Virus genome (UHGV): UHGV-1710763
DNA: 28,122 bases
Direction: 5' to 3' (one strand)
From: a virus
Shown: positions 5,665 to 16,321 of the stretch, piece by piece
How positions within the stretch are numbered: position 1 is the stretch's first letter
Layout: each line of letters opens with the position of its first letter
Position numbers and translations under genes: made by a program
The notes under the pieces: model-generated
Database searches by the model: none
Seen by the model: the letters and a program-made list of their open reading frames with translations, nothing else
Told to the model about the DNA's origin: nothing

Positions 5665-6129
5665 TTACTTTGGGTATACACTGTCAAGATAAATGTCAGC
5701 TTCCATTCTACGTCTGTTTTTCAGGCCGTTTGAAGTGACCTTCTGACCTTTGACTGTAACCTTGTTCCACCACTGCATAGCTTCTGCACAACCTACCTTA
5801 TTACCAGCGTTGTGGCGCTTGATAAATGTAGAGTCCTGCATAGCTGTGATACCAATGTTGTATGTTTCACTTACAAGTGCATCAAACTCGTTCTGAGAAG
5901 TTGGAACCTTGATAGCTTTGTTCACTGCTGCAACGAACTTTTCAACATCTGCGAGAAGATACTGTTCAGCTTGTTCAGCGGTAATCTTCATACCCATCTT
6001 AACAGGCTTCCCACCAATACGAATTGTCCCATACCCAATTGTGGGGATTCCAGCAGAATCTTCGTAAGCCTCAAGCTTAAGACCTTCAAAGAACTTAATA
6101 GCTTCTAATCCTTTTCTTGAGAGTTGCAT
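5665..6129 (-). CDS. phage lysozyme / endolysin, glycoside hydrolase family 24 (T4 e / lambda R type)
   Basis: Translation carries the GH24 signature FEGLKLEAYEDSAGIPTIGYG (catalytic Glu, Asp, Thr spacing); size of 154 aa is typical. Confidence 0.8.
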   Translation of the reverse strand: MQLSRKGLEAIKFFEGLKLEAYEDSAGIPTIGYGTIRIGGKPVKMGMKITAEQAEQYLLADVEKFVAAVNKAIKVPTSQNEFDALVSETYNIGITAMQDSTFIKRHNAGNKVGCAEAMQWWNKVTVKGQKVTSNGLKNRRRMEADIYLDSVYPK

Positions 6130-7262
6130 TATGCCCCTCCTACTGGGTTAACTGTAACTGTTGCCGCATTAGATGTTACAGAGCCACCTGCACCAGTAAC
6201 TACACAAGTGTAGCTTCCTGCATCAGCAGTGGTTGCACCTTCTTTGGTGTAAGTTGCAGCAGTTGCATCGAGGATGTCTTCCTCACCTTTCTTCCACTGG
6301 TAACCTGTTGCACCTGTTGCCACAACATTCAGTGTTAAAGTCTCACCTTCAGTGATTTCTTGATTGGTTGGCTGTTGAGTGACTACCGGAAGTGCGTTAA
6401 CAATAACCGTTGCAGGGCTAGAAGTGACAGAACCACCTGCACCTGTTACAACGCAAGTGTATGAACCTGCATCTGCTGGCAGAGCACCAGACTTGCTATA
6501 GGTAGCATTTGTCGCTGAAGGAATGTCAGAGCCATCTTTCTTCCATTGGTAACCAGTTGCACCAGTTGCAGTAACTGCTAAGTTGATGTTTCCACCTTCA
6601 TTAATAGTCTGGTTAGAAGGTTGCTTGGTAATCACAGGTAGTGCGTTCACAGTCACTGTTGCTGCATCTGAGGTAACACTTGTTCCACCCTCTCCAGATA
6701 CAACACAAGTGTATGAACCAGCGTCAGAAGGTGCTACTGACTGTTTTGTGTAAGTTGCAGAATTGGCACTAGGGATATCCTCACCATCCTTCTTCCACTG
6801 ATATCCAGTGGCGTTAGTTGCTAGAATGCTTAGAGTAAGTGTGCCACCCTCATTGACTGTTTGACCTGTTGGTTGCTGAGTAATTGCTGGTGGCTTAATA
6901 GCATCCTTCAACTTAGCATTCAACATTGAGAACGGCTTAACTCTTGCCAACCATTCACAGTAAATTGTGTCAACATCTTTACCATTGATGATTGCATACT
7001 GCAAATCCATGAAGAAATCAGCAGTTCTCATCTGTGCACCAACACTGTAAAGCAATTCATCACTAAATGGAACTTTGTAGTCTGGTTTGTAGTCAAACTT
7101 CTCAACTTCTGCAATATCAGCTTCAGGCCAATATGAACTATAGGTAAGTGGTAAAATAGCCTCTTGATATGTTCTAAAATCATATCTCTTACCAGCCTTT
7201 ACATTTGCAATGAAACCCTTCACAAACTCTTTGAAGTCTGGGTAAGTCTTTGCTTTAATCAT
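6129..7262 (-). CDS. protein with an N-terminal domain of unknown function plus three tandem Ig-like (I-set type) repeats
   Basis: Three ~85-aa repeats each ending in the motif DAGSYTCVV(S/T)G and containing ATGYQWKK. Confidence 0.65.
   Translation of the reverse strand: MIKAKTYPDFKEFVKGFIANVKAGKRYDFRTYQEAILPLTYSSYWPEADIAEVEKFDYKPDYKVPFSDELLYSVGAQMRTADFFMDLQYAIINGKDVDTIYCEWLARVKPFSMLNAKLKDAIKPPAITQQPTGQTVNEGGTLTLSILATNATGYQWKKDGEDIPSANSATYTKQSVAPSDAGSYTCVVSGEGGTSVTSDAATVTVNALPVITKQPSNQTINEGGNINLAVTATGATGYQWKKDGSDIPSATNATYSKSGALPADAGSYTCVVTGAGGSVTSSPATVIVNALPVVTQQPTNQEITEGETLTLNVVATGATGYQWKKGEEDILDATAATYTKEGATTADAGSYTCVVTGAGGSVTSNAATVTVNPVGGA
6140..6900 (-). repeat. three tandem ~255-bp coding repeats (Ig-like domains) inside the 6129..7262 gene
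   Basis: Near-identical DNA blocks encoding the repeated Ig-like domain. Confidence 0.6.
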
Positions 7263-7573
7263 TTCTTTTTAGCCTCTAAATGTGCGTTTAGTCTAAAATA
7301 ACCTTTGTGATGCGGAGATACATCACCAACAACAATACCTTTAACCTTATAGCCTTTACCAATTACATACTGGATATCCATAAGGAATCTTCCAAGACCA
7401 ACAATATGGAACATTGGATATAATAGATTCTCAGAATCTGGAATATTGATTTCAGGTTTGTAGGTGCGTTGTTCGCTTGTTGGTGTAATATCTTCTTCAG
7501 GCCATTTACTGAGTCTCCATGTCAAAGGTGTTGGGATAACATCATTAAGGTTGTACCTTTCACCATTTTGCAC
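7259..7573 (-). CDS. paralogue of the N-terminal domain of the Ig-repeat protein; N-terminus apparently frameshifted (possible pseudogene)
   Basis: Shares PLT..WPE.DI...YKP...LLY...F.MD.QY.I with the 6129..7262 product; track ORF starts with GTG, while an ATG at 7629 in another frame encodes MKAKSAKDF, matching MIKAKTYPDF of the paralogue. Confidence 0.5.
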   Translation of the reverse strand: MQNGERYNLNDVIPTPLTWRLSKWPEEDITPTSEQRTYKPEINIPDSENLLYPMFHIVGLGRFLMDIQYVIGKGYKVKGIVVGDVSPHHKGYFRLNAHLEAKKK

Positions 7574-7676
7574 GGAATTGATATAGGATTGTAGGAAGCA
7601 ATAAAGTCTTTTGCACTCTTAGCTTTCATTAAATATCCTTATAAATAGTTAAAGGGGCATCAGCCCCTATTCACAC

Positions 7677-8267
7677 TTAAGCTTTGGTCTTAAGTAGGTT
7701 CTTAAGTTTTTTAAGATTCATACTCTCATCAAACTTAAAACCAAATCCATTGACATAATCAATGAACTCGGATTTCTTACTGAGTGACAATGCGTAACTC
7801 ATATCAAAGTTCTTACTTGTTTCTGCGTCTGGACTAGAGTTCACATCAAATGAAATTTCTGTAGGCTCTTGCTTACTTTTCCTCATATTATCAACCAACA
7901 AACATGTATAGTTTGCTGGATAGAAGTTTACACTACCATCAACGTAGCTGTACTTATTATTATGGATAAGGTTGGAAAATACCTTAAGGAATGTTTCTGA
8001 GTCGTGGCAAACAAGTTTGAATTGGCTGCTCTCTCCAAGCGCAACTAATGAGTACGGACTTTCACTATCAAAGTCATAATTTGGATTCGATGCCGTCACT
8101 GTTACACGCATCAAGTTATTAGCAATAGTCTTCTGTTTAAAAGAATTTTGAACATAGTGAAGACCTCTATCACACTGATTGACTAGCTCTTTAAGTAGGT
8201 CATTTGCATATGGTGAATTAATTGATACAGAGCCATCACTATTGTAATTAAAACTTACTGTTAACAT
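7677..8267 (-). CDS. hypothetical protein (196 aa)
   Basis: ORF-track ORF. Confidence 0.55.
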   Translation of the reverse strand: MLTVSFNYNSDGSVSINSPYANDLLKELVNQCDRGLHYVQNSFKQKTIANNLMRVTVTASNPNYDFDSESPYSLVALGESSQFKLVCHDSETFLKVFSNLIHNNKYSYVDGSVNFYPANYTCLLVDNMRKSKQEPTEISFDVNSSPDAETSKNFDMSYALSLSKKSEFIDYVNGFGFKFDESMNLKKLKNLLKTKA

Positions 8268-9339: not shown

Positions 9340-10755
9340 ATGAGCGAATTATTTAAACATGCGCACCTTCATGCAGGTCGAACTGAAAATGGTGCTGTAA
9401 ACCATACTTCATCAATGTCTGCTCTTGTAGACTTTTACAAAGCTGCTGGTTCAAGCCGTAGCAATGTAGAAATCTTACCAGACCTGTTCTACAAAGCTTT
9501 GCGTGAGGATGTTGATGTTGCAGTTCGTATTTTACTGCATATGCGAGATGTACGAGAAGGTATGGGTGAGCGTAAAGCCTTCAGAACTGTTTTGCTTCAA
9601 GCAATTGAAGATAAAGTTTTAGAGCCTACACAGGTTCTTCGCATTATGGATAAGATTGCAGAACTTGGTCGTTTTGATGACTTCAAAATCTTCGTAGGTA
9701 CTCGTTTCGAGACAGATGCCTTCAAACATTTAGAAGCAGCATTACTAGACCCTGCAACAGCAGGTTTGGCAGCTAAGTGGTTACCACGAGTAAAACCACG
9801 TCACAAACAGTTTGTAAAACGTTTCTGCAAGTTTGCAAACTTGAGTGAGAAGGAGTATCGCACACTGTTATCTGCACTGTCTGATACGGTTGAGCAAAAA
9901 ATCTCTGCTAATGAGTTTGGTAAGATTGACTACAGTAAGATTCCTTCACTTGCTGCTGCACGTTACCAAAAACTCTTTAACCGTAAAGATGGAGAACGCT
10001 ACAAAGCTTACATTGAGTCCTTATCAAAGGGCGAGACTAAGATTAATGCTGGTGCTGTTTATCCATACGATGTGATTAAATCTGTTAAGTATGGTAATGC
10101 AGATGTTGCTAATGAGCAGTGGAAAGCACTACCAAACTGGATGGCAGAGGGTGAAAACATTCTATGTATGTCTGATGTTTCAAGTTCAATGTCTTGGGTG
10201 AATTTTGGTTCAATTACTGCTCTTGATATTGGTGTTTCACTTGCATTGTATGTAGCAGAACGTAATACAGGTTGCTTTAAGAATGAGTTGATGGTTTATT
10301 CAACAAACCCTCACTTCATTGAACTGAGTGGTGATTTACGAAACCGTCATCGTCAGGTGATGCGACACGTTGAATATGGCTCAACTAACTTACAAGCAGC
10401 TTTTGACCGTATTCTTGAGACAGGTAAAAGAAACAACTTGACTCAGAAAGATATGCCAAGTAAGCTTATCATCTTCTCCGATATGGAGTTCAATCAGGTT
10501 GATGGAGCTAACGGTCGTACAAACTTTGAAGCAATTCAGAGTAAGTACAAAAAAGCTGGATATGAGATGCCACAACTGGTATTCTGGTACTTAGCAAACC
10601 GTAATGGCACTTGCGAAGTATCTGTTAAGGATAACGGTGTAGCAATGGTATCTGGTTTCTCTCCAGCCACTTTAAAAGCTTTGCTTGGTGGTGAGAAGTT
10701 TGACCCAATCAGCGTAATGCTCAAAGCAGTAATGATTGACCGTTATATCTGGTAA
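9340..10755 (+). CDS. Ro60/TROVE-like protein: alpha-helical N-terminal region plus C-terminal vWA domain with MIDAS motif (Rsr-like)
   Basis: MIDAS DxSxS in ILCMSDVSSSMSW; C-terminal IIFSDMEF; YPYDVIKSV segment; helical N-terminus. These parallel Ro60 segments as recalled from memory (HPFHILIAL, LLAVDVSASMN, VFIVFTDNE). Confidence 0.55.
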   Translation: MSELFKHAHLHAGRTENGAVNHTSSMSALVDFYKAAGSSRSNVEILPDLFYKALREDVDVAVRILLHMRDVREGMGERKAFRTVLLQAIEDKVLEPTQVLRIMDKIAELGRFDDFKIFVGTRFETDAFKHLEAALLDPATAGLAAKWLPRVKPRHKQFVKRFCKFANLSEKEYRTLLSALSDTVEQKISANEFGKIDYSKIPSLAAARYQKLFNRKDGERYKAYIESLSKGETKINAGAVYPYDVIKSVKYGNADVANEQWKALPNWMAEGENILCMSDVSSSMSWVNFGSITALDIGVSLALYVAERNTGCFKNELMVYSTNPHFIELSGDLRNRHRQVMRHVEYGSTNLQAAFDRILETGKRNNLTQKDMPSKLIIFSDMEFNQVDGANGRTNFEAIQSKYKKAGYEMPQLVFWYLANRNGTCEVSVKDNGVAMVSGFSPATLKALLGGEKFDPISVMLKAVMIDRYIW

Positions 10756-10765
10756 AAAGTTTTAA

Positions 10766-10802
10766 AAAGGGTATTGACAATGTGTTTGATACCCTTTAAT
10801 AT
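10766..10802 (+). promoter_or_regulatory. sigma70-like promoter (TTGACA-17-TAATAT) embedded in a 9-bp-stem hairpin just after the Ro60-like gene
   Basis: TTGACA 10774-10779, TAATAT 10797-10802; inverted repeat AAAGGGTAT (10766-10774) / ATACCCTTT (10789-10797). Confidence 0.55.
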
Positions 10803-10864
10803 TTTCTACATAGAAACGAAATGAGAGCTTTTCTAAGATACTGAAAAATATTTTAAAAAAGTTC

Positions 10865-10894
10865 TTGACAATCACTAAAAAATAATGTTAAAGT
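10865..10894 (+). promoter_or_regulatory. sigma70-like promoter ahead of the first tRNA
   Basis: TTGACA at 10865-10870; TAAAGT at 18-nt spacing; AAAAAAGTTCTTGACA upstream context. Confidence 0.45.
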
Positions 10895-10920: not shown

Positions 10921-10997
10921 CTCTGTTTAGCTCAGCTTGGTAGAGCGTTCCGTTTGGGGCGGTAAGGCCGGAGGTTCAAGTCCTCCAACAGAGACCA
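10921..10997 (+). tRNA. tRNA-Pro (anticodon TGG)
   Basis: Hand-folded cloverleaf: acceptor CTCTGTT / AACAGAG, D-arm GCTC..GAGC, anticodon loop TTTGGGG, T-arm GGAGG-TTCAAGT-CCTCC, encoded CCA. Confidence 0.7.
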
Positions 10998-11004
10998 AAT
11001 TAAT

Positions 11005-11082
11005 GTTCCAGTAGACAAAATGGTAAAGTCACCACTCTTTCAAAGTGGATATCTGAGGGTTCAAATCCCTTCTGGAACGCCA
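11005..11082 (+). tRNA. tRNA-Glu (anticodon TTC)
   Basis: Acceptor GTTCCAG / CTGGAAC; anticodon stem CCACT / AGTGG with loop CTTTCAA; T-loop TTCAAAT; CCA. Confidence 0.75.
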
Positions 11083-11173
11083 GTTTTGACAGAAGACCAA
11101 TTACAGCAAACTTAATCTTATTCATCTGAAGGTAAATCGGACAAAGAAGAGATTTGGTCTGGTCATTAAGAAT

Positions 11174-11250
11174 TGCGGGTATAGAGAAAGGGCGTCTCAC
11201 ATGTCTCATTAGCATGGTATCGGCAGGTTCGACTCCTGCACCCGCCTCCA
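11174..11250 (+). tRNA. tRNA with CAT anticodon (Met, fMet or Ile-lysidine; identity unresolved)
   Basis: Anticodon stem CATGT / GCATG with loop CTCATTA; T-arm GCAGG-TTCGACT-CCTGC; acceptor has a 1:72 mismatch; CCA. Confidence 0.65.
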
Positions 11251-11334
11251 AATTTACAGAAGACCGTTTACAGCAATACTTATTAAATTTTTAGCGGAAA
11301 AAATTGAAATATACGGTCTGGTAATACTAAACAT

Positions 11335-11411
11335 GGTTAGGAAGCACATAAGGTATGTGCGGTCGCCTGTTAAGCGAATGGCACAGGGTTCGAATCCCTG
11401 ACTAACCGCCA
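11335..11411 (+). tRNA. tRNA-Asn (anticodon GTT)
   Basis: Acceptor GGTTAGG / ACTAACC; D-arm GCAC..GTGC; loop CTGTTAA; T-arm CAGGG-TTCGAAT-CCCTG; CCA. Confidence 0.75.
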
Positions 11412-11480
11412 AATTTAGGAGAGAAGCAATTGCTCACCGATTTGTAAGGTGCAAGTCCTTAGCCTGAATAGAAATTAAAT

Positions 11481-11568
11481 GTGTCGTTATCCCGTAGATG
11501 GTAGCGGTGGGGACTGTAAATCCCTTGTCATTGAGACTCGGTAGGTTCGACTCCTACACGGCACACCA
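11481..11568 (+). tRNA. tRNA-Tyr (anticodon GTA), class II with long variable arm
   Basis: Acceptor GTGTCGT / ACGGCAC; anticodon stem GGGGA / TCCCT with loop CTGTAAA; ~15-nt variable arm; T-arm GTAGG-TTCGACT-CCTAC; CCA. Confidence 0.65.
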
Positions 11569-11573
11569 ATAAA

Positions 11574-11651
11574 GGTTATGTAGTTTAATTTGGTTAAAAT
11601 ACTCCCCTGTCACGGGAGATGATGAGGGTTCAAATCCCTTCGTAACCGCCA
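11574..11651 (+). tRNA. tRNA-Asp (anticodon GTC)
   Basis: Acceptor GGTTATG / CGTAACC; anticodon stem CTCCC / GGGAG with loop CTGTCAC; T-loop TTCAAAT; CCA. Confidence 0.75.
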
Positions 11652-11834
11652 ATTTTGAGAGGGCTATTTAGCCCCTCCCTTAAAGGGTTCTTACGAGTAT
11701 CCTTTAAAGGAGCAGAAGACCAAATACAGCAAGTTACTTAAAATTTCAAGCCAATTTAATTTTGAAAAATTTAAAACTTGGTCTGGCTCAACAAATTTAC
11801 AGAAGACCGTTTACAGCAAAACTTAAACAATCTA

Positions 11835-11907
11835 TTTCTCCGGTAAAGAAAAGGCGAAGGTTCGATTCCTTCACTCGGCAGATGTCGAGTTGGTGTAATG
11901 GTAGCAC
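11835..11907 (+). ncRNA. circularly permuted tRNA-like element (anticodon-like hairpin, T-arm, acceptor stem closed by an AGAT loop, D-arm); candidate Y-RNA-like tRNA mimic
   Basis: Order read directly: TTTCT-CCGGTAA-AGAAA, GAAGG-TTCGATT-CCTTC, ACTCGGC-AGAT-GTCGAGT (7 bp), TG, GTG-TAATGGTAG-CAC; no 5' acceptor partner upstream and no 3' half downstream. Confidence 0.35.
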
Positions 11908-11932
11908 TTAAGATGATAAACAACGGTCTGGT

Positions 11933-12076
11933 AATTATCTTTGTAGATAAGTTATTAAGCTTACCTGTGAGTATGCGACCACAAAGGGTGAAAGGGTAAA
12001 TTCTAGATTTAAACCTAACAAGGCACATCGCTACAGACCTTAAGCAAGTCTGGGTAGCTTATCTACAAAGATAATT
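11933..12076. repeat. perfect 18-19-bp inverted repeat flanking a ~106-bp segment (long hairpin, possible RNase III site or miniature element)
   Basis: ATTATCTTTGTAGATAAG at 11934-11951 is the exact reverse complement of CTTATCTACAAAGATAAT at 12058-12075. Confidence 0.6.
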
Positions 12077-12080
12077 TAAT

Positions 12081-12156
12081 GGAAGTGTAGCAGAATGGTG
12101 ATGCGGCAGACTTTTAATCTGACAGGCGATGGGTTCGAATCCCTCCACTTCTACCA
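12081..12156 (+). tRNA. tRNA-Lys (anticodon TTT)
   Basis: Acceptor GGAAGTG / CACTTCT; anticodon loop CTTTTAA; T-loop TTCGAAT; CCA; paralogue of the Lys(CTT) gene at 13309. Confidence 0.75.
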
Positions 12157-12161
12157 AAAAT

Positions 12162-12238
12162 GGTTCAGTCGCAGATAAGGTAATGCAAGGGTTTCATAAG
12201 CCCTATGAATGTGGGTTCGATTCCCACCTGAACCTCCA
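12162..12238 (+). tRNA. tRNA with CAT anticodon (second copy; Met / fMet / Ile2 unresolved)
   Basis: Acceptor GGTTCAG / CTGAACC perfect; anticodon stem AGGGT / GCCCT with loop TTCATAA; T-arm GTGGG-TTCGATT-CCCAC; CCA. Confidence 0.7.
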
Positions 12239-12239
12239 A

Positions 12240-12315
12240 GCTGGTATAGTTAAGAAGGTTATAACACTCCCCTGATAAGGGAACATCGGTGGTTCGATTC
12301 CACCTACCAGTACCA
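12240..12315 (+). tRNA. tRNA-Ile (anticodon GAT)
   Basis: D-arm GTTA..TAAC; anticodon loop CTGATAA; T-arm GGTGG-TTCGATT-CCACC; CCA. Confidence 0.7.
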
Positions 12316-12330
12316 ATTTCAATAAAGTTG

Positions 12331-12359
12331 TTGACATTGAGATGTGACTACTTTATAGT
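12331..12359 (+). promoter_or_regulatory. strong sigma70-like promoter inside the tRNA island (TTGACA-17-TATAGT)
   Basis: TTGACA 12331-12336, exactly 17-nt spacer, TATAGT 12354-12359, with the AATAAAGTTGTTGACA upstream context. Confidence 0.6.
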
Positions 12360-12562
12360 AACCTTAGTTTTCGTTGCGTAGCGTCTATTTTGCAAATTTA
12401 AAATAAATGCAAACGACAATGTTTTTCTGGCAGTAGCTTGATAGGCTAAACACCAGTGAGGTCTTCCAATCCCTCATCAAAGAATTTGGCGTACTAGCCC
12501 ACGGTATGATTAATAAGGTGGGCATCTTTAAGGGCTTTCTAAGAGAGTCTTTAAAGATTAAT

Positions 12563-12639
12563 GCACCCTTAGTTCAATTGGATAGAGCAACGGTCTTCTA
12601 AATCGTTAGTTACAGGTTCGAATCCTGTAGGGTGTACCA
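12563..12639 (+). tRNA. tRNA-Arg (anticodon TCT)
   Basis: Acceptor GCACCCT / AGGGTGT; D-arm GTTC..GAGC; anticodon stem ACGGT / ATCGT with loop CTTCTAA; T-arm ACAGG-TTCGAAT-CCTGT; CCA. Confidence 0.75.
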
Positions 12640-12780
12640 ATTAGTTAGCAGATTACTTAGACGACCTAAGCGGGTCTTCCTGTAGGGAGGTGGTCTGTAT
12701 CTCATGTTTTCCAGAACATGTAAATAATCTGAGAAGGGGCTTTACAGTGTTGAGATAATACGGTAAGCTTCGAATTATAG

Positions 12781-12867
12781 TATGGGACGATGTTAAGACT
12801 CTAAGGCATGAGCAACGGCTTCCAACACCGTTTCAAAGGGGTTCAACTCATCCGTCCCATGCCAAAG
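12781..12867 (+). ncRNA. unresolved tRNA-like structured element (11-bp terminal stem, 9-nt-loop hairpin with CTTCCAA, T-loop-like GGGGTTCAA, ends GCCA)
   Basis: TATGGGACGATG pairs with CATCCGTCCCATG; internal hairpin AACGG-CTTCCAACA-CCGTT; no canonical cloverleaf could be drawn. Confidence 0.3.
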
Positions 12868-12877
12868 TCTTATTAGG

Positions 12878-12965
12878 GGTAGGTAGCGGCTAATGGTAGC
12901 CAAACAGTCTTGAAAACTGTTGCCACTGTAGAGATACGGTGAGGGTTCGACTCCTTTACTTACCG
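12878..12965 (+). tRNA. tRNA-Ser (anticodon TGA), class II; CCA not encoded
   Basis: Acceptor GGTAGGT / ACTTACC; anticodon stem ACAGT / ACTGT perfect with loop CTTGAAA; long variable arm; T-loop TTCGACT. Confidence 0.6.
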
Positions 12966-13223
12966 CCTAATAAGATTTTACACCGTCCATGCTTGCTCGC
13001 ATTTTCGGTTTATCCCTCGTGTATTGTCGTACACACTGATAAAGCACCTAGTAGGTGTCACGGAGAAGAGATAATATCAAGCTCTCCAAAGGTTCTAGCC
13101 ACCGGATTAAACAAGACTATGCAAAGACCTTTTTAGGTCTTTTTAGAGGGCTTCTAAGGTTATTACAGCTTGTTGTGGAACCTTGTTGCTTAGGTTCTTA
13201 GAAGTTCTCTAAAAAGATTTAAT

Positions 13224-13301
13224 GGGAGATTGACGGTAATTGGTAAACCTACCATCCTTAGAAGTTGGTGTTTGAGGGTTCGAATCCCTTGTCTCCTACC
13301 A
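13224..13301 (+). tRNA. tRNA, anticodon provisionally TAG (Leu) on a class-I-length scaffold; identity uncertain
   Basis: Acceptor GGGAGAT / GTCTCCT (two G-U pairs); loop CTTAGAA between CCATC / GTTGG (one mismatch); T-arm GAGGG-TTCGAAT-CCCTT; CCA; D-arm irregular. Confidence 0.5.
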
Positions 13302-13308
13302 AATTAAT

Positions 13309-13384
13309 GCAGGTGTAGCAAAATGGTTATGCGGCTGACTCTTAATCAGTAAGACGATGGGTTCAATTCCCTCCACCTGTACCA
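13309..13384 (+). tRNA. tRNA-Lys (anticodon CTT)
   Basis: Acceptor GCAGGTG / CACCTGT; anticodon stem GCTGA / TCAGT with loop CTCTTAA; T-loop TTCAATT; CCA. Confidence 0.75.
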
Positions 13385-13391
13385 AACAATG

Positions 13392-13467
13392 GGGGTCATA
13401 GTTTATATGGTTAAAATTCGAGTTTTGCAAACTTGGGAACTGAGTTCAATTCTCAGTGACTCCACCA
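13392..13467 (+). tRNA. tRNA-Ala (anticodon TGC)
   Basis: Acceptor GGGGTCA / TGACTCC; anticodon stem CGAGT / ACTTG with loop TTTGCAA; T-arm CTGAG-TTCAATT-CTCAG; CCA. Confidence 0.75.
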
Positions 13468-13473
13468 ATTAGT

Positions 13474-13548
13474 GCATCCATAGTTTAAACGGGAAAATTA
13501 CAGTCTTCCAAACTGAGGTTGAGGGTTCGATTCCCTCTGGATGCTCCA
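13474..13548 (+). tRNA. tRNA-Gly (anticodon TCC)
   Basis: Acceptor GCATCCA / TGGATGC perfect; loop CTTCCAA; T-arm GAGGG-TTCGATT-CCCTC; CCA. Confidence 0.75.
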
Positions 13549-13562
13549 AATTAAGGTGTGAT

Positions 13563-13976
13563 ATGAAAATATGCAGTACTTGCAGAATACCAAAAGATGA
13601 AAGCTTATTCCATAAGAATAAGAACAAGAAAGACGGTCTTCAAAGTCAATGCAAAGATTGTGCAAGACTTCGTGATGCAAAGAGTTATCAAGCAAATGAT
13701 AAAAGGAAAGAGGCTATTAAAAGCACTCGTAACTTCAAGAGAGAGCATAACAAGACTCTAGCTAGAAGGTACAAAGCTTTATGCAAATGTCATATATGTG
13801 GTGAGAAAGAACCAGTTGCACTGGATTTACACCATACAGACCCTTCCCAGAAAGATTTGAATCCTGCATCACTTTATTCATACTCCACAAAAAGATTAAA
13901 AGATGAAATCAGAAAGTGCATTGTCTTGTGCGCTAACTGTCACAGAAAAGTACATGCTGGTATCATAAAAGTTTAA
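13563..13976 (+). CDS. HNH family endonuclease (free-standing homing-endonuclease-like gene)
   Basis: Cys pairs CKDC and CKCHIC plus an HNH core (LDLHHTD ... N ... CANCHRKVH) in the translation; sits between tRNA-Gly and tRNA-Thr. Confidence 0.7.
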   Translation: MKICSTCRIPKDESLFHKNKNKKDGLQSQCKDCARLRDAKSYQANDKRKEAIKSTRNFKREHNKTLARRYKALCKCHICGEKEPVALDLHHTDPSQKDLNPASLYSYSTKRLKDEIRKCIVLCANCHRKVHAGIIKV

Positions 13977-13977
13977 T

Positions 13978-14054
13978 GCTGCTTTCGTATAATTGGCTAT
14001 TACACATCCCTTGTAAGGATGGAAATGCAGGTTCGAGTCCTGTGAGCAGCACCA
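13978..14054 (+). tRNA. tRNA-Thr (anticodon TGT)
   Basis: Acceptor GCTGCTT / GAGCAGC; anticodon stem CATCC / GGATG perfect with loop CTTGTAA; T-loop TTCGAGT; CCA; starts 2 nt after the HNH stop codon. Confidence 0.8.
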
Positions 14055-14149
14055 ATTCAGAGGTCAAGTGAAAGACCGCTGGTGTCAACTGAAGACCGTA
14101 ACAAATTCCACGGAGTTGAGTTAGCGGCACAACTTCAGACCTCTTTCAT

Positions 14150-14224
14150 ACTCGCTTAGTTTATATGGTAAAACATCACCCTTACAAGATGAAGAGAAAG
14201 GTTCAAGCCCTTTAGTGAGTACCA
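14150..14224 (+). tRNA. tRNA-Val (anticodon TAC)
   Basis: Acceptor ACTCGCT / AGTGAGT; D-arm GTTT..AAAC; loop CTTACAA; T-arm AAAGG-TTCAAGC-CCTTT; CCA. Confidence 0.65.
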
Positions 14225-14225
14225 T

Positions 14226-14303
14226 GTTCCAGTATCCCAATTGGCAGAGGATGCAAGCTCAAACCTTGTACTAGTGACGGTTCGAATCCGTCTTGGAACA
14301 CCA
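14226..14303 (+). tRNA. tRNA with CAA anticodon (Leu-type) but only a 6-nt variable region
   Basis: Acceptor GTTCCAG / TTGGAAC; anticodon stem GCAAG / CTTGT with loop CTCAAAC; T-arm GACGG-TTCGAAT-CCGTC; A73; CCA. Confidence 0.6.
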
Positions 14304-14308
14304 ATTTT

Positions 14309-14384
14309 GCAGGATTAGTTCAAATGGATAGAGCAACAGTCTACGAAGCTGTTAATAGGGGTTCGAATCCCTTATCCTGCGCCA
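14309..14384 (+). tRNA. tRNA-Arg (anticodon ACG)
   Basis: Acceptor GCAGGAT / ATCCTGC perfect; D-arm GTTC..GAGC; anticodon stem ACAGT / GCTGT with loop CTACGAA; T-loop TTCGAAT; CCA. Confidence 0.8.
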
Positions 14385-14403
14385 ATTTAAAGAGGCTATT
14401 TAG

Positions 14404-14961
14404 ATGAGATATTTGAAGTATGCTTCATGGATTTTCTTAGCTTTGTTAGAGCCATTTGCAGCAATCTTAGCAGTTATCTTAGCACCTTTTGTAGTTCCAT
14501 TCTACAGTGAGAAGAAAGGACACTTACCTTTCGGATTCAGATGGATGGAGACATATGACAACCCAATTGATGGTGATGAAGGTCACGTTAAAAGATGGGC
14601 TAATATTAGATGGATTGGTAAACTAGGTGTCTACATGCAAAGAGTCGGATGGCTCTGGAGAAACAAAGCTTATAACTTCTCTTACCATGTATTAGGAAGA
14701 GATGTAAAAGATGTTACTAAGTGGAAAGGTAATATCAACGTAAGTTCTAACCCTGAAGATAATCAGACAGGTTATCTCCTAATGTGGAACAGCAATGCTT
14801 GGGGATTATTCGCTTTTATCCCATCAATTAAAATCTTTGGTAAACAGTTCTACTGGAGAATTTATATTGGGTGGAAGCTAAAAAGTGTTGTCCCAGAAGA
14901 AAGAGCATTCTCAAGGGAAAGAGTTATGTTGGCATTCTTTATTCATCCACTAAGAAAGTAA
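14404..14961 (+). CDS. hypothetical membrane protein (hydrophobic N-terminus, Trp-rich)
   Basis: ORF-track ORF; N-terminal hydrophobic stretch WIFLALLEPFAAILAVILAPFVV; embedded between tRNA genes. Confidence 0.55.
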   Translation: MRYLKYASWIFLALLEPFAAILAVILAPFVVPFYSEKKGHLPFGFRWMETYDNPIDGDEGHVKRWANIRWIGKLGVYMQRVGWLWRNKAYNFSYHVLGRDVKDVTKWKGNINVSSNPEDNQTGYLLMWNSNAWGLFAFIPSIKIFGKQFYWRIYIGWKLKSVVPEERAFSRERVMLAFFIHPLRK

Positions 14962-14969
14962 AGATTTAA

Positions 14970-15045
14970 AGGGGATTAGTTTACAAGGTTAAAACCTCGG
15001 TCTTTGAAATCGAAGAAGTTGGTTCAATTCCAACATCCCCCGCCA
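14970..15045 (+). tRNA. tRNA-Gln (anticodon TTG)
   Basis: D-arm GTTT..AAAC; anticodon stem TCGGT / ATCGA with loop CTTTGAA; T-arm GTTGG-TTCAATT-CCAAC; weak 1:72 pair; CCA. Confidence 0.7.
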
Positions 15046-15047
15046 AT

Positions 15048-15126
15048 GCTCCATTACTCCAATTGGCAGAGAGGCCAGACTTAAAATCTGTGTTATGTAT
15101 CGGTTCGAATCCGATATGGAGTACCA
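15048..15126 (+). tRNA. tRNA with TAA anticodon (Leu-type) but only a 7-nt variable region
   Basis: Acceptor GCTCCAT / ATGGAGT; anticodon loop CTTAAAA; T-arm ATCGG-TTCGAAT-CCGAT; A73; CCA. Confidence 0.6.
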
Positions 15127-15131
15127 AATTT

Positions 15132-15207
15132 AGCGGTATAGCATAACTGGCAATGCAACAGTCTCTGAAGCTGTCTTATTAAGGTTCAAATCCTTATGCC
15201 GCTGCCA
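15132..15207 (+). tRNA. tRNA-Gln (anticodon CTG)
   Basis: Acceptor AGCGGTA / TGCCGCT; anticodon stem ACAGT / GCTGT with loop CTCTGAA; T-arm TAAGG-TTCAAAT-CCTTA; CCA. Confidence 0.7.
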
Positions 15208-15238
15208 CTTCTAAGGGTTCTTACGAGAGTCCTTAAAT

Positions 15239-15314
15239 GTGGCCTTATCATAAATGGTAATGACCCATGCTGTGAACATGGTCTATACGGGTTCAAATCC
15301 CGTAGGTCACCCCA
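15239..15314 (+). tRNA. tRNA-His (anticodon GTG)
   Basis: Acceptor GTGGCCT / AGGTCAC; D-arm TCAT..ATGA; anticodon stem CCATG / CATGG perfect with loop CTGTGAA; C73 discriminator; CCA. Confidence 0.75.
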
Positions 15315-15321
15315 ATTTATA

Positions 15322-15396
15322 GTCCAAGTAGCTTATATGGTTAAAGCGCGTGTCTGAAAAACATGAGAAGAGGGTTCAAATCCCACTGGACTACCA
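15322..15396 (+). tRNA. tRNA-Phe (anticodon GAA); acceptor register ambiguous
   Basis: D-arm GCTT..AAGC; anticodon stem CGTGT / ACATG with loop CTGAAAA; T-loop TTCAAAT; ends ACCA. Confidence 0.65.
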
Positions 15397-15412
15397 ATTT
15401 CAAAGGTGCTTA

Positions 15413-16147
15413 ATGAAAGAGATGACAGAACAAGGTAAGGAGATTTTTAATCTCTTAAAAACCGGTAAAGGGTTTTCTAACCCACTTATTACTGGTGCAG
15501 CAGTTCTCGGTGGAACCGTAGCTGCCTCTACATCACTTGTAAGCTCTATTAGCTCTGTAACAGACCCTACAACGAAGGAGAAACTTGTTGCTGCTGGACT
15601 TACAACAGTTCTTCTAAACAGCTTTACAACAAGCCTGACAAGCACTACAGCAACTACTAAGACCCTAACAGACTACGGTCAAAAGTCTATTGATGAGTTT
15701 TCATCACGTATGCAGGTGGCAAAGGGATATTCCAATGTTATGGGTGCAGCAGGAGAACAAGTTGGTTGTACACCATTCAGTGGTATTATGGGTGTTGCTA
15801 CAGAGTATGGTCAGCAAGCTATTGACATGATTAACAGCACACTAGACAGTGTTAACGGTGTGTTAAGTGACTTACAAGATGCTATTGACAAGGGTCTTGA
15901 TACTGTTTCTGATTTAGCTAACCAAGCTGTAAGTAAGATTAATGAAGGTATTTCAAAGATTACAGCTTATGCAGATGAAGTTGTGCAGATGATTGAAGAA
16001 GAAGCTGCCCTTATTGCAGAGTACCTTAAAACGAATATCAATGGGTTCTTAGCAGGTATCTTACCAGACTGGTTTGATGATGCCTGTAAAACTGGTGTAA
16101 TTGACACTATTGCAACACCAGAAATGAAGAACGCATTACAGAAATAA
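15413..16147 (+). CDS. hypothetical Ser/Thr-rich protein; start moved downstream of the track ORF (15350) to the first ATG clear of tRNA-Phe
   Basis: Track ORF 15350..16147 overlaps the tRNA at 15322-15396; the in-frame ATG at 15413 has AAAGGTG upstream. Confidence 0.55.
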   Translation: MKEMTEQGKEIFNLLKTGKGFSNPLITGAAVLGGTVAASTSLVSSISSVTDPTTKEKLVAAGLTTVLLNSFTTSLTSTTATTKTLTDYGQKSIDEFSSRMQVAKGYSNVMGAAGEQVGCTPFSGIMGVATEYGQQAIDMINSTLDSVNGVLSDLQDAIDKGLDTVSDLANQAVSKINEGISKITAYADEVVQMIEEEAALIAEYLKTNINGFLAGILPDWFDDACKTGVIDTIATPEMKNALQK

Positions 16148-16148
16148 T

Positions 16149-16241
16149 GGAAGATTAACCCTAAAAGGTAAGGGAGCAGTTTGCTAAACTGCCAGTAGCT
16201 GAGAAATCGGTGTACCAGTTCAAGTCTGGTATCTTCCTCCA
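16149..16241 (+). tRNA. tRNA-Ser (anticodon GCT), class II with long variable arm
   Basis: Acceptor GGAAGAT / ATCTTCC perfect; anticodon stem GCAGT / ACTGC perfect with loop TTGCTAA; ~20-nt variable arm; T-arm ACCAG-TTCAAGT-CTGGT; CCA. Confidence 0.8.
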
Positions 16242-16245
16242 ATTT

Positions 16246-16321
16246 GAATCCGTGACAGAAATGGCTATGTGCCTGTCTGCAAAACAGGTTTATAAGGGTT
16301 CGAGTCCCTTCGGATTCTCCA
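16246..16321 (+). tRNA. tRNA-Cys (anticodon GCA)
   Basis: Acceptor GAATCCG / CGGATTC perfect; anticodon stem CCTGT / ACAGG perfect with loop CTGCAAA; T-arm AAGGG-TTCGAGT-CCCTT; CCA. Confidence 0.8.

Follow-up and report, generated by a model that had tools for sequence, protein, structure and literature searches.

Permuted genes are known for transfer RNA (tRNA) in the red alga Cyanidioschyzon merolae and, as two-piece genes, for transfer-messenger RNA (tmRNA). tRNA-like elements are also part of YrlA, the Y RNA of bacterial Ro60 (Rsr). The YrlA RNAs are defined by a GNCGAAN0-1G motif near the 5' end, the presumed contact of Ro60, by stem-loops of T, acceptor-like and D type, before which a V stem-loop may lie on the upstream side of T, by proximity to a Ro60 gene (within 4 kb, on the same strand), by binding to Ro60 in vivo and by tRNA-type modifications, namely dihydrouridine and pseudouridine (PMC4201824). 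The YrlA of Mycobacterium smegmatis is cleaved by RNase P and has CCA added to it (PMC4201824). In Thermus phage phiLo, a protein of Ro60 fold is encoded with adjacent Y-like RNAs, Yrl1 and Yrl2 (PMC12135203). Here we describe an RNA element in UHGV virus genome UHGV-1710763, analysed as one stretch of 28,122 nucleotides (nt; hereafter the window) whose sequence places its source among the Felix O1-like phages (Felixounavirus). Positions 11835-11907 of the + strand hold a circularly permuted tRNA-like module. The module lies inside a longer predicted RNA (11796-11935), encoded 1.04 kb downstream of, and on the same strand as, a gene (9340-10755) whose product has a Ro60 fold in its structural model and no TROVE match. 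It is likely that the permuted domain serves as effector module in a non-coding RNA of Y-RNA-like type, which the phage encodes and which docks on this Ro60-like protein.

The permuted module and the RNA that encloses it

The original prediction, made from the letters alone, had proposed that an anticodon-like hairpin and T arm come first and an acceptor hairpin and D arm after them, that is, a 3' half, a loop and a 5' half. This order was confirmed in the sequence and is made up of the following elements:

11835-11851, + strand: anticodon-like (or variable-arm-like) hairpin UUUCU-CCGGUAA-AGAAA, from the sequence, the fold and the de-permuted ARAGORN call
11852-11855, + strand: spacer AGGC, from the sequence
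11856-11872, + strand: T arm GAAGG-UUCGAUU-CCUUC, from the sequence, the Rfam tRNA model and the scanner described below
11873-11890, + strand: acceptor hairpin of 7 base pairs (bp) closed by AGAU, with ACUCGGC at 11873-11879, AGAU at 11880-11883 and GUCGAGU at 11884-11890
11891-11892, + strand: linker UG, with the U8-like U11891, from the sequence
11893-11907, + strand: D arm GUGU-AAUGGUA-GCAC, from the sequence, the scanner, the alignment and the pair changes

Exact complementarity of the acceptor strands, as stated there, does not hold: one of the seven pairs is a G-U wobble (G11878-U11885) and the other six are Watson-Crick pairs. A U-G wobble is found in the D stem too, and since the wobbles of both stems are possible on the + strand only, they fix this strand as the coding one. 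That the module is not an ordinary tRNA gene was borne out, with no ARAGORN tRNA call at this place; the Rfam tRNA model matched just the anticodon-like hairpin and T arm, at 22-23 bits and under its threshold of 29. Neither a conventional 3' half downstream nor a 5' half upstream was found that would complete a normal tRNA. When 11884-11908 was joined to 11835-11880, ARAGORN called a full tRNA-Thr(GGU) cloverleaf, which indicates a true circular permutation with its break at tRNA positions 26/27. A strict scanner, which accepted a T arm only with an acceptor hairpin (6 bp or longer) and a D arm behind it in this order, was run over 893 kb and returned 15 matches on the strand that carries the protein gene, against 1 on the opposite strand. 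Over 20 dinucleotide-preserving shuffles of those sequences it returned 1 match in total, which excludes a chance origin of the module.

Folding places the permuted module at the core of the longer RNA, enclosed by a bulged closing stem. Three further RNAs in the window have the same closing module and a fifth structured RNA follows them. They are listed here with their scores from R1, a covariance model for which seven Ounavirinae sequences were used, from R2, a covariance model built from 27 amoeba Class I RNAs only, and from the Rfam model of these Class I RNAs (Dicty_Class_I_RNA, RF01414), which are considered below:

11796-11935, + strand: long Y-like RNA 4, with R1 162 bits, supported by the minimum free energy (MFE) fold and kept in 250+ Felix O1-like phage records
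11797-11819, + strand: 5' half of its closing module, made of UUAC, an AGA bulge and AGACCGU (11797-11810), then single-stranded UUACAGCAA (11811-11819)
11923-11935, + strand: 3' half of its closing module, ACGGUCU, G, GUAA, U, which pairs with the 5' half (11923-11934)
11086-11166, + strand: short Y-like RNA 1 in the tRNA-Glu/tRNA-Met spacer, with the closing stem, UUACAGCAA and exact motif matches, without a tRNA-like module; R1 44.2 bits, Rfam Class I 19.7 bits
11253-11325, + strand: short Y-like RNA 2 in the tRNA-Met/tRNA-Asn spacer, without a tRNA-like part; R1 53.8 bits, R2 19.2 bits, Rfam Class I 21.3 bits
11710-11789, + strand: short Y-like RNA 3, with lower stem GAGC/GCUC, upper stem AGACCAA/UUGGUCU and motif AUACAGCAA, without a tRNA-like part, conserved across Ounavirinae; Rfam Class I 15.3 bits
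11935-12077, + strand: fifth structured RNA (~143 nt), with a closing stem of ~24 bp and an internal hairpin CAGAC-CUUAAGCAA-GUCUG, from the MFE fold

The pattern AGACCnnnUnCAGCAA occurs exactly four times in the window, each time with GGUCUGG downstream, so that the four RNAs have AGACC(R)(W)(W)UACAGCAA ... GGUCUGG in common. The motif itself reads UUACAGCAA in two of them and AUUACAGCAA and AUACAGCAA in the others, and the lower stem covaries between the four paralogues (UGAC/GUCA, UUAC/GUAA, GAGC/GCUC). RNAs 1 and 2 fill the spacers of neighbouring tRNA genes exactly, and tRNA processing would therefore release them. The fifth RNA, for which Rfam gave no match, carries UUAAGCAA in the loop of its internal hairpin, and both this hairpin and the long stem covary in SUSP2/Moogle (CAAACC-CUUUAGCAA-GGUUUG). 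It is possibly a further docking site, with an internal hairpin that resembles the docking motif, and its membership in the group is uncertain.

Within the Ounavirinae, the T and D loops are invariant over Felixounavirus, Suspvirus and Mooglevirus, and the acceptor stem is found in three compensated versions: ACUCGGC/GUCGAGU in the window, ACACG/CGUGU in SUSP2 and Sf13, and ACCCUUC/GAAGGGU in Moogle and HP1, where the acceptor hairpin has an 8-nt loop. Constraint is weaker on the anticodon-like hairpin, which has a 6-nt loop in phage 35FD, gives way to UUUCA-GGGUA-UGAGA with a 5-nt loop in Moogle/HP1 and is missing from several distant members. In a plain MAFFT alignment of 17 members (A4), GGUUC.A..CC, U8, G18/19 and A21 are invariant, with the acceptor stems of divergent members put out of register by this method.

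The Ro60-like protein and related RNAs in other loci

The presumed RNA partner is the product of the following gene:

9340-10755, + strand: Ro60-like protein gene, 471 amino acids, helical ring plus vWA domain

The original prediction had invoked a Ro60-like gene nearby, and this holds for the fold and not for the sequence family. Pfam assigned DUF2828 and DUF7788 to the product, with no match to TROVE (PF05731) even at E <= 10. It belongs to PHROG 850, 'RNA-binding protein', and a phmmer search against PDB sequences found nothing relevant. An AlphaFold2 model, for which 33 homologues were used (pLDDT 88, pTM 0.87), matched Ro60 structures over its full length in Foldseek, namely Xenopus Ro60 2i91_A (TM 0.67), 1yvp, Deinococcus Rsr 2nvo and the phiLo Ro60 entries 9kop and 9l5y, with E of about 1e-7 to several Ro60 entries. 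As modelled, the neighbour is Ro60-like by fold only. Mycobacteriophage homologues at 31-34% identity carry the annotation 'Ro-like RNA binding protein'. The organism tally of the tblastn search held 120 Escherichia records, which seems too few for T4-like coliphages to be among them; the species 1/2 RNAs of T4 were considered as possible relatives. A homologue 97.9% identical to the window protein was found in phage JohannRWettstein, which we take to be Bas63. In Bas63, gp130 was described as Ro60-like and as countering the Ppl defence system; the same study guesses that some 'tRNA genes' are Y RNAs, identifying none (PhageMaP preprint, 10.1101/2024.10.10.617714).

We then turned to 75 distant viral loci chosen solely for a DUF2828 homologue at 38-47% identity. 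The scanner found permuted modules in at least 12 distant viral loci, all on the strand of the gene. When 11 loci were checked with ARAGORN, overlap with called tRNAs was seen only at a weak 5-bp hit in one of them (L053). In 13 distant members the outer stems are perfect, of 6-9 bp and of unrelated sequence, and the stem is followed by CAGCAA or a variant of it (CAGCAG, CAGCAU, CCGCAA) in every case checked. A search of 905 kb of DUF2828-selected phage loci with R1 gave 50 matches, 49 of them on the gene's strand and several right at gene ends, in a long form of ~120-165 nt and a short form of 60-80 nt. Among 80 bacterial contigs and metagenome-assembled genome contigs with the gene, all 24 R1 matches were on the gene's strand.

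The structure is also supported by covariation. In alignment A5, standard pairs fill 95.7% of pair cells, compared with 62% when shuffled and about 40% when slid, figures that lean towards the structure since A5 was fitted to the model; the scanner and plain alignments agree with the A5 result. Changes on both sides were found in 26 of the 27 modelled pairs, including all 7 acceptor pairs, and the outer stem shows double changes in 7/7 pairs and is 97% paired.

Individual loci illustrate the association of gene and RNA. In mycobacteriophage BigCheese (L088 5447-5706), the 'Ro-like RNA binding protein' gene is immediately followed by three tandem RNAs in the order short-long-short; the long one contains the permuted tRNA-like module, each of the three has GUGGNC..-UA(A)CAGCAA ... 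CCAG ends, and a GC-rich hairpin with a U-run, terminator-like, follows. In Yersinia phage vB_YenM_P778 (L090), R1 matched 6672-6813, 7136-7215, 7336-7410 (E 0.18) and 7780-7884. These RNAs are interleaved with tRNA genes downstream of a DUF2828 gene whose product is 53% identical to the window protein, an arrangement that mirrors the one in Felix O1.

Some acceptor loops contain N-CCA (L001 3150-3205, L058 7563-7618, L080 7843-7901 and 10527-10582, L087 38-99), with the loop sequences G-CCA-AACA, G-CCA-AUU, A-CCA-ACUAU, C-CCA-AU and A-CCA-ACACUGA among distant members. These loops read like a discriminator, CCA and spacer, which suggests either an origin at the junction of tandem tRNAs or RNase P cleavage of the kind described for the M. 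smegmatis YrlA.

The surroundings of the DUF2828 gene in Listeria phage List-36 (L091) were also noted. ROOL RNA was matched ~1 kb upstream of the gene (2426-2977; 91.5 bits, threshold 99.1), and a gene for an RtcB-type 'tRNA splicing ligase' (6810-8021) lies ~1.3 kb downstream. This layout recalls the bacterial rsr-yrlA-rtcB operon.

Comparison with YrlA, phiLo and dictyostelid Class I RNAs

The topology proposed for the module, that of the tRNA-like part of Y RNAs, proved right: its order equals that of the Rfam YrlA consensus (RF02553), in which an anticodon-stem analogue encloses the T arm, the acceptor hairpin, UA and the D arm. Similar to YrlA, the window RNA has a T arm, an acceptor hairpin without a free CCA end and a D arm, enclosed by a helix towards the protein-docking end, with an extra hairpin upstream of the T arm in the place of the optional 'V'. 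In addition, it is encoded near, and on the same strand as, a gene whose product is of Ro60 type by fold, with no TROVE match, and it is accompanied by shorter sister RNAs without the tRNA-like part, as YrlA is by YrlB. The geometry of YrlA is also seen in several distant members, where a helix by the D arm and variable loop leads straight into the outer stem (ACAAU/AUUGU in L080, CUUU/AAAG in L087, UUUGU/ACAAA in L058). Its equivalent in the window may be AUCU 11830-11833 / AGAU 11911-11914, the hairpin at 11835-11851 then being an analogue of the variable arm.

Covariance models, to which the original prediction had looked for recognition as a Y RNA, did not provide it: neither YrlA nor Y_RNA matched 11640-12090 or 11790-11940 at E <= 10, and at gathering thresholds Rfam reported tRNAs only in the whole window. 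Among related RNAs, the member in mycobacteriophage Krypton555 (L089 5561-5625) matched the YrlA core at 38.3 bits (E 4.6e-7), under the threshold of 69. The window RNA differs from YrlA in its docking end, which is UUACAGCAA after a bulged stem and not GNCGAAN0-1G, in its partner, a DUF2828/DUF7788 protein that is Ro60-like by fold only, and in the location of the RNAs inside an array of 26 tRNA genes. Furthermore, the extra hairpin of the Felix O1 group resembles a full anticodon arm, making a complete permuted cloverleaf. The window RNA is probably YrlA-like in its working and lies outside the YrlA family as currently defined.

The phiLo system shares with the window the pairing of a Ro60-fold protein with adjacent Y-like RNAs, and its structures are among the best structural matches of the window protein. 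It differs in having a recognisable Ro60 homologue in UniProt and Yrl RNAs with the CGAA motif, and the term 'tRNA-like' is absent from the text of the phiLo paper (PMC12135203).

A second resemblance concerns the docking end. Class I RNAs of dictyostelid amoebae are 42-65 nt long, start with AAG and end with CUGU, and have a 6-bp terminal stem that varies with compensatory changes, an 11-nt motif by its 5' strand and a variable interior; their function is unknown and, as reported, they occur in Dictyostelia alone (Kjellin et al. 2021, PMC7919456). The four window RNAs match RF01414 weakly and in one register, at 21.3, 19.7, 15.3 and 12.8 bits (threshold 41.5). The layout is alike, with a terminal stem of 6-7 bp whose sequence varies under preserved pairing, as in GUUGAC-CUUACAGCAA...GUCAAC-UG, with (C)CUUACAGCAA directly after the 5' strand of the stem, and so are the termini: (A)AG ... 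CUG(U) in the amoebae, (A)AAG-stem ... stem-CUG(A/U)UAA in the phage consensus and GAAG ... CUGG in the window. R2, from which nine Class I sequences had been left out for a one-column shift in the alignment, gave 56 matches at E <= 10 in 944 kb of phage loci, with 53 on the gene's strand; of the 44 matches in distant loci, about 35 were within 700 nt of the DUF2828 gene. In bacterial loci, 32 of 33 R2 matches were on the gene's strand. The top R2 score was 27.5 bits, and the Rfam gathering threshold of 41.5 was not reached. The full amoeba motif occurs in some bacterial loci, with CCUUACAGCAA in L118 and L126 and, for example, GGUUCCUUACAGCAA...GGAACCUG.

The differences are also clear. The phage short forms measure 60-80 nt and the long form 140 nt, compared with 42-65 nt, and an additional lower helix and a bulge set the phage stems apart. 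In the amoebae, the RNAs are eukaryotic transcripts made from a DUSE promoter, whereas the phage locus has sigma-70-like promoters, and the only direct binder shown for the amoeba RNAs is Rnp1A, an RNA recognition motif protein. A T arm is present in three Class I RNAs as well (asu_can_20, ppa_can_99 and DpuR-22), and in asu_can_20 it is followed by an 8-bp hairpin with a closing tetraloop. Another insert, AGGUGUAGAAUAGGUGGGAG...GUGAAAUACCACCACU, presumably resembles a segment of large-subunit rRNA, which would suggest effector inserts of non-tRNA type. It is common to the long Class I variants DdR-66, DdR-67 and DpuR-27 to DpuR-30 (Kjellin 2021 supplement). Pulled down with DdR-21, a Class I RNA, were GuaB, NdkC, Rnp1A and the uncharacterised protein DDB_G0281243 (preprint version of the Kjellin paper). 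Our literature search found no paper connecting DUF2828, Ro60 and Class I RNAs.

As a resemblance between RNAs, judged by their sequences, the Class I link has strong statistical support. We put forward only tentatively, as a serious possibility that we do not yet favour, that the phage and bacterial DUF2828-adjacent RNAs and the Class I RNAs are one family, with Class I RNAs being the 'Y RNAs' of a DUF2828-type Ro60-like protein. The docking module would define such a family: AAG and a stem of variable sequence, next (C)UUACAGCAA, and then the return strand of the stem with CUG. Inserts of the tRNA-like and possibly of an rRNA-like kind would act as effector modules that can replace one another, and DDB_G0281243 would be a prime candidate partner.

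Proposed role, alternative explanations and significance

The long RNA lies in a genomic setting dominated by tRNA genes. ARAGORN found 26 of them in the window, all on the + strand and spanning 10921-16321, with the permuted module inside a 429-nt gap from tRNA-Asp to tRNA-Lys. The segment 11652-12080 shares 98-99.8% identity with many records of Salmonella and Escherichia phages and, among the phage records listed, is without annotation or bears small hypothetical open reading frames (ORFs) only. Upstream of the array a consensus scan identified:

10774-10894, + strand: two sigma-70-like promoters, TTGACA-17-TAATAT and TTGACA-18-TAAAGT, with 10/12 matches each

Judging from these consensus matches, the two predicted promoters probably drive the array of tRNAs and Y-like RNAs. 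Up to 12200, no terminator-like site was found on the + strand except a hairpin (10766-10797) that overlaps the first promoter. A further candidate promoter, TTTACA-16-AATACT at 11253, belongs to the repeated RNA motif and was unconvincing. A minus-strand ORF of 85 amino acids (11771-12028) was rejected as a gene because indels among the relatives have lengths not divisible by three and because only an RNA of the + strand accommodates the G-U wobbles.

Other features of the window were recorded. Two hairpins, GAGAGGGCUAUUUAGCCCCUCCC and CUUUAAAGGGUUCUUACGAGUAUCCUUUAAAGG, stand at 11655-11712 between tRNA-Asp and the third short RNA; they are near-invariant throughout Ounavirinae and may be processing or termination signals. 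The tRNA array is broken by ORFs at 13563-13976, 14404-14961 and 15350-16147, with a weak HNH endonuclease match, DUF7338 and DUF7217. On the minus strand, 6129-7262 encodes a product of 377 amino acids in which Pfam finds three immunoglobulin-like domains (Ig_3, Ig_2, I-set) and which probably decorates the capsid or the tail.

We propose that the RNA at 11796-11935 would be transcribed within the tRNA array from the promoters just 3' of the Ro60-like gene, and that the processing that matures the flanking tRNAs would release it. The bulged stem and single-stranded UUACAGCAA probably dock all four RNAs on the Ro60-like protein (gp130 in Bas63). Together, T arm, acceptor hairpin and D arm would form a tRNA-shaped body without a free CCA end. 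As with the YrlA domain, this body may engage a factor that recognises tRNAs, for example RNase P, an enzyme that modifies tRNA or a nuclease. It would then either tether this factor to the ring of the protein or be a competitor of tRNAs for it. The complex of Ro60, Y RNA and PNPase offers an analogy for such a mechanism. A possible role in counter-defence is suggested by the Bas63 gp130 result alone.

Several observations weigh against this explanation. The Rfam YrlA model gave no score at all on the window RNA, and the GNCGAA motif is missing from it, its 5' region reading UUUACAGAAGACCGUUUACAGCAA; the sole GGCGAAG (11853-11859) is at the T-stem junction and is not kept in 35FD, Moogle or HP1. 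To these can be added the lack of a TROVE match in the protein and the lean of the A5 pair counts, both mentioned above. The MFE z-score of the isolated long RNA is only -1.6. The inner junction can be drawn in two ways, either with AUCU/AGAU (11830-11833/11911-11914) and a variable-arm-like hairpin or, in the MFE fold, as a five-way junction closed by CUUAA/UUAAG. The 3' strand of the CUUAA/UUAAG helix is kept in SUSP2 and Sf13 but its 5' strand is not, and we therefore did not rely on it. Finally, some DUF2828 genes have RNA elements 14-60 nt upstream of them, and these elements could act as leaders in cis regulation and not as separate RNAs.

Two alternatives concern the origin of the module from tRNA genes. 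It might be a real tRNA-Thr(GGU) gene in circularly permuted form, the transcript of which would be cut at the acceptor loop and, at another place, joined again or held together so as to decode, in keeping with the full cloverleaf that ARAGORN calls after de-permutation and with an array that contains tRNA-Thr(UGU) and no GGU isoacceptor. Like permuted tRNA and tmRNA genes, the module has its 3' half upstream of its 5' half, a short acceptor linker and a valid de-permuted cloverleaf, and some distant members have an N-CCA acceptor loop. A 7-bp acceptor stem is, moreover, an RNase P determinant (Chen 2014, PMC4201824). However, the break at 26/27 is bridged by a docking module, the closing stem and motif, that is common to three RNAs without tRNA parts; position 33 is C and not U; the window loop AGAU lacks CCA; and the anticodon-like loop is not conserved in the family, given the 6-nt loop of 35FD, the replacement in Moogle/HP1 and the absence from several distant members. 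We know of no maturation pathway for permuted tRNA genes in bacteria, and we regard a decoding tRNA as very improbable. The original prediction had itself allowed for a rearranged tRNA remnant. In the form considered here, the T arm of one tandem tRNA gene and the D arm of the next would persist without function and decay in the array. A tandem-tRNA junction is a plausible origin, since the module resembles one and the loops G-CCA-AACA (Moogle) and A-CCA-ACUAU (L080) resemble discriminator, CCA and spacer. A decaying remnant is contradicted by the acceptor stem compensated across genera together with invariant T and D loops, by the recurrence of the module beside DUF2828 genes in unrelated phages and bacteria and by the absence of an upstream 5' half or downstream 3' half to complete ordinary tRNAs, and we give it just as little credence.

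The remaining alternatives accept a functional RNA and dispense with the complex. The tRNA-like fold could be mainly a processing signal that brings in RNase P, RNase Z or the CCA-adding enzyme, by which the polycistronic transcript would be cut and its neighbouring RNAs given their ends. For this speak its embedding in a tRNA array without internal terminators, the few nucleotides that separate RNA 3, RNA 4 and the fifth RNA, the N-CCA loop of some members and the cleavage and CCA addition reported for the M. smegmatis YrlA (PMC4201824). Yet the short RNAs at 11086 and 11253 are already flanked by tRNAs and need no extra signal, and this explanation accounts neither for the closing module common to the short forms nor for the Ro60-like gene being linked to the RNA where a locus has no tRNA array. 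As the main function it seems unlikely, and it is compatible with the explanation that we prefer. The RNA alone might instead be a decoy or sponge for a tRNA-targeting defence nuclease of the host or a tRNA-binding enzyme, its linkage to the gene being mere co-location in a neighbourhood of tRNA and RNA-repair genes. It has been proposed that the tRNA arrays of phages offset defences that target tRNAs, the tRNA mimicry is clear, and RtcB and ROOL RNA are neighbours in List-36. Against this stand the short forms, which without any tRNA-like part have the same module on the same strand, often less than 100 nt from the gene; module and tight linkage together indicate that the protein is the common partner. 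We consider a decoy acting alone quite unlikely. A Y-RNA-like RNA docked on the Ro60-like protein is the explanation that we retain as likely.

In the window RNA, tRNA mimicry of YrlA type is combined with another docking module and with a branch of Ro60-like proteins that is distinct in sequence. Phages of the Felix O1 type find wide use in typing and therapy. The five structured RNAs in the window, four of them with a common docking module, make the Y RNA guess of the PhageMaP preprint specific and testable. More broadly, our findings suggest an RNA ligand for the DUF2828/DUF7788 family, which has thousands of phage and bacterial members and in which DUF2828 was also reported in plants and mimivirus-like sequences (literature on DUF2828). 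tRNA mimicry by Ro60-type ribonucleoproteins would reach beyond the pair of TROVE protein and YrlA. Class I RNAs are an abundant and developmentally important class of eukaryotic RNAs that has had no known function since 2004. If their resemblance to the phage RNAs reflects a common protein partner, this 20-year-old question would become directly testable, and the description of Class I RNAs as 'unique to social amoebae' would need revision.

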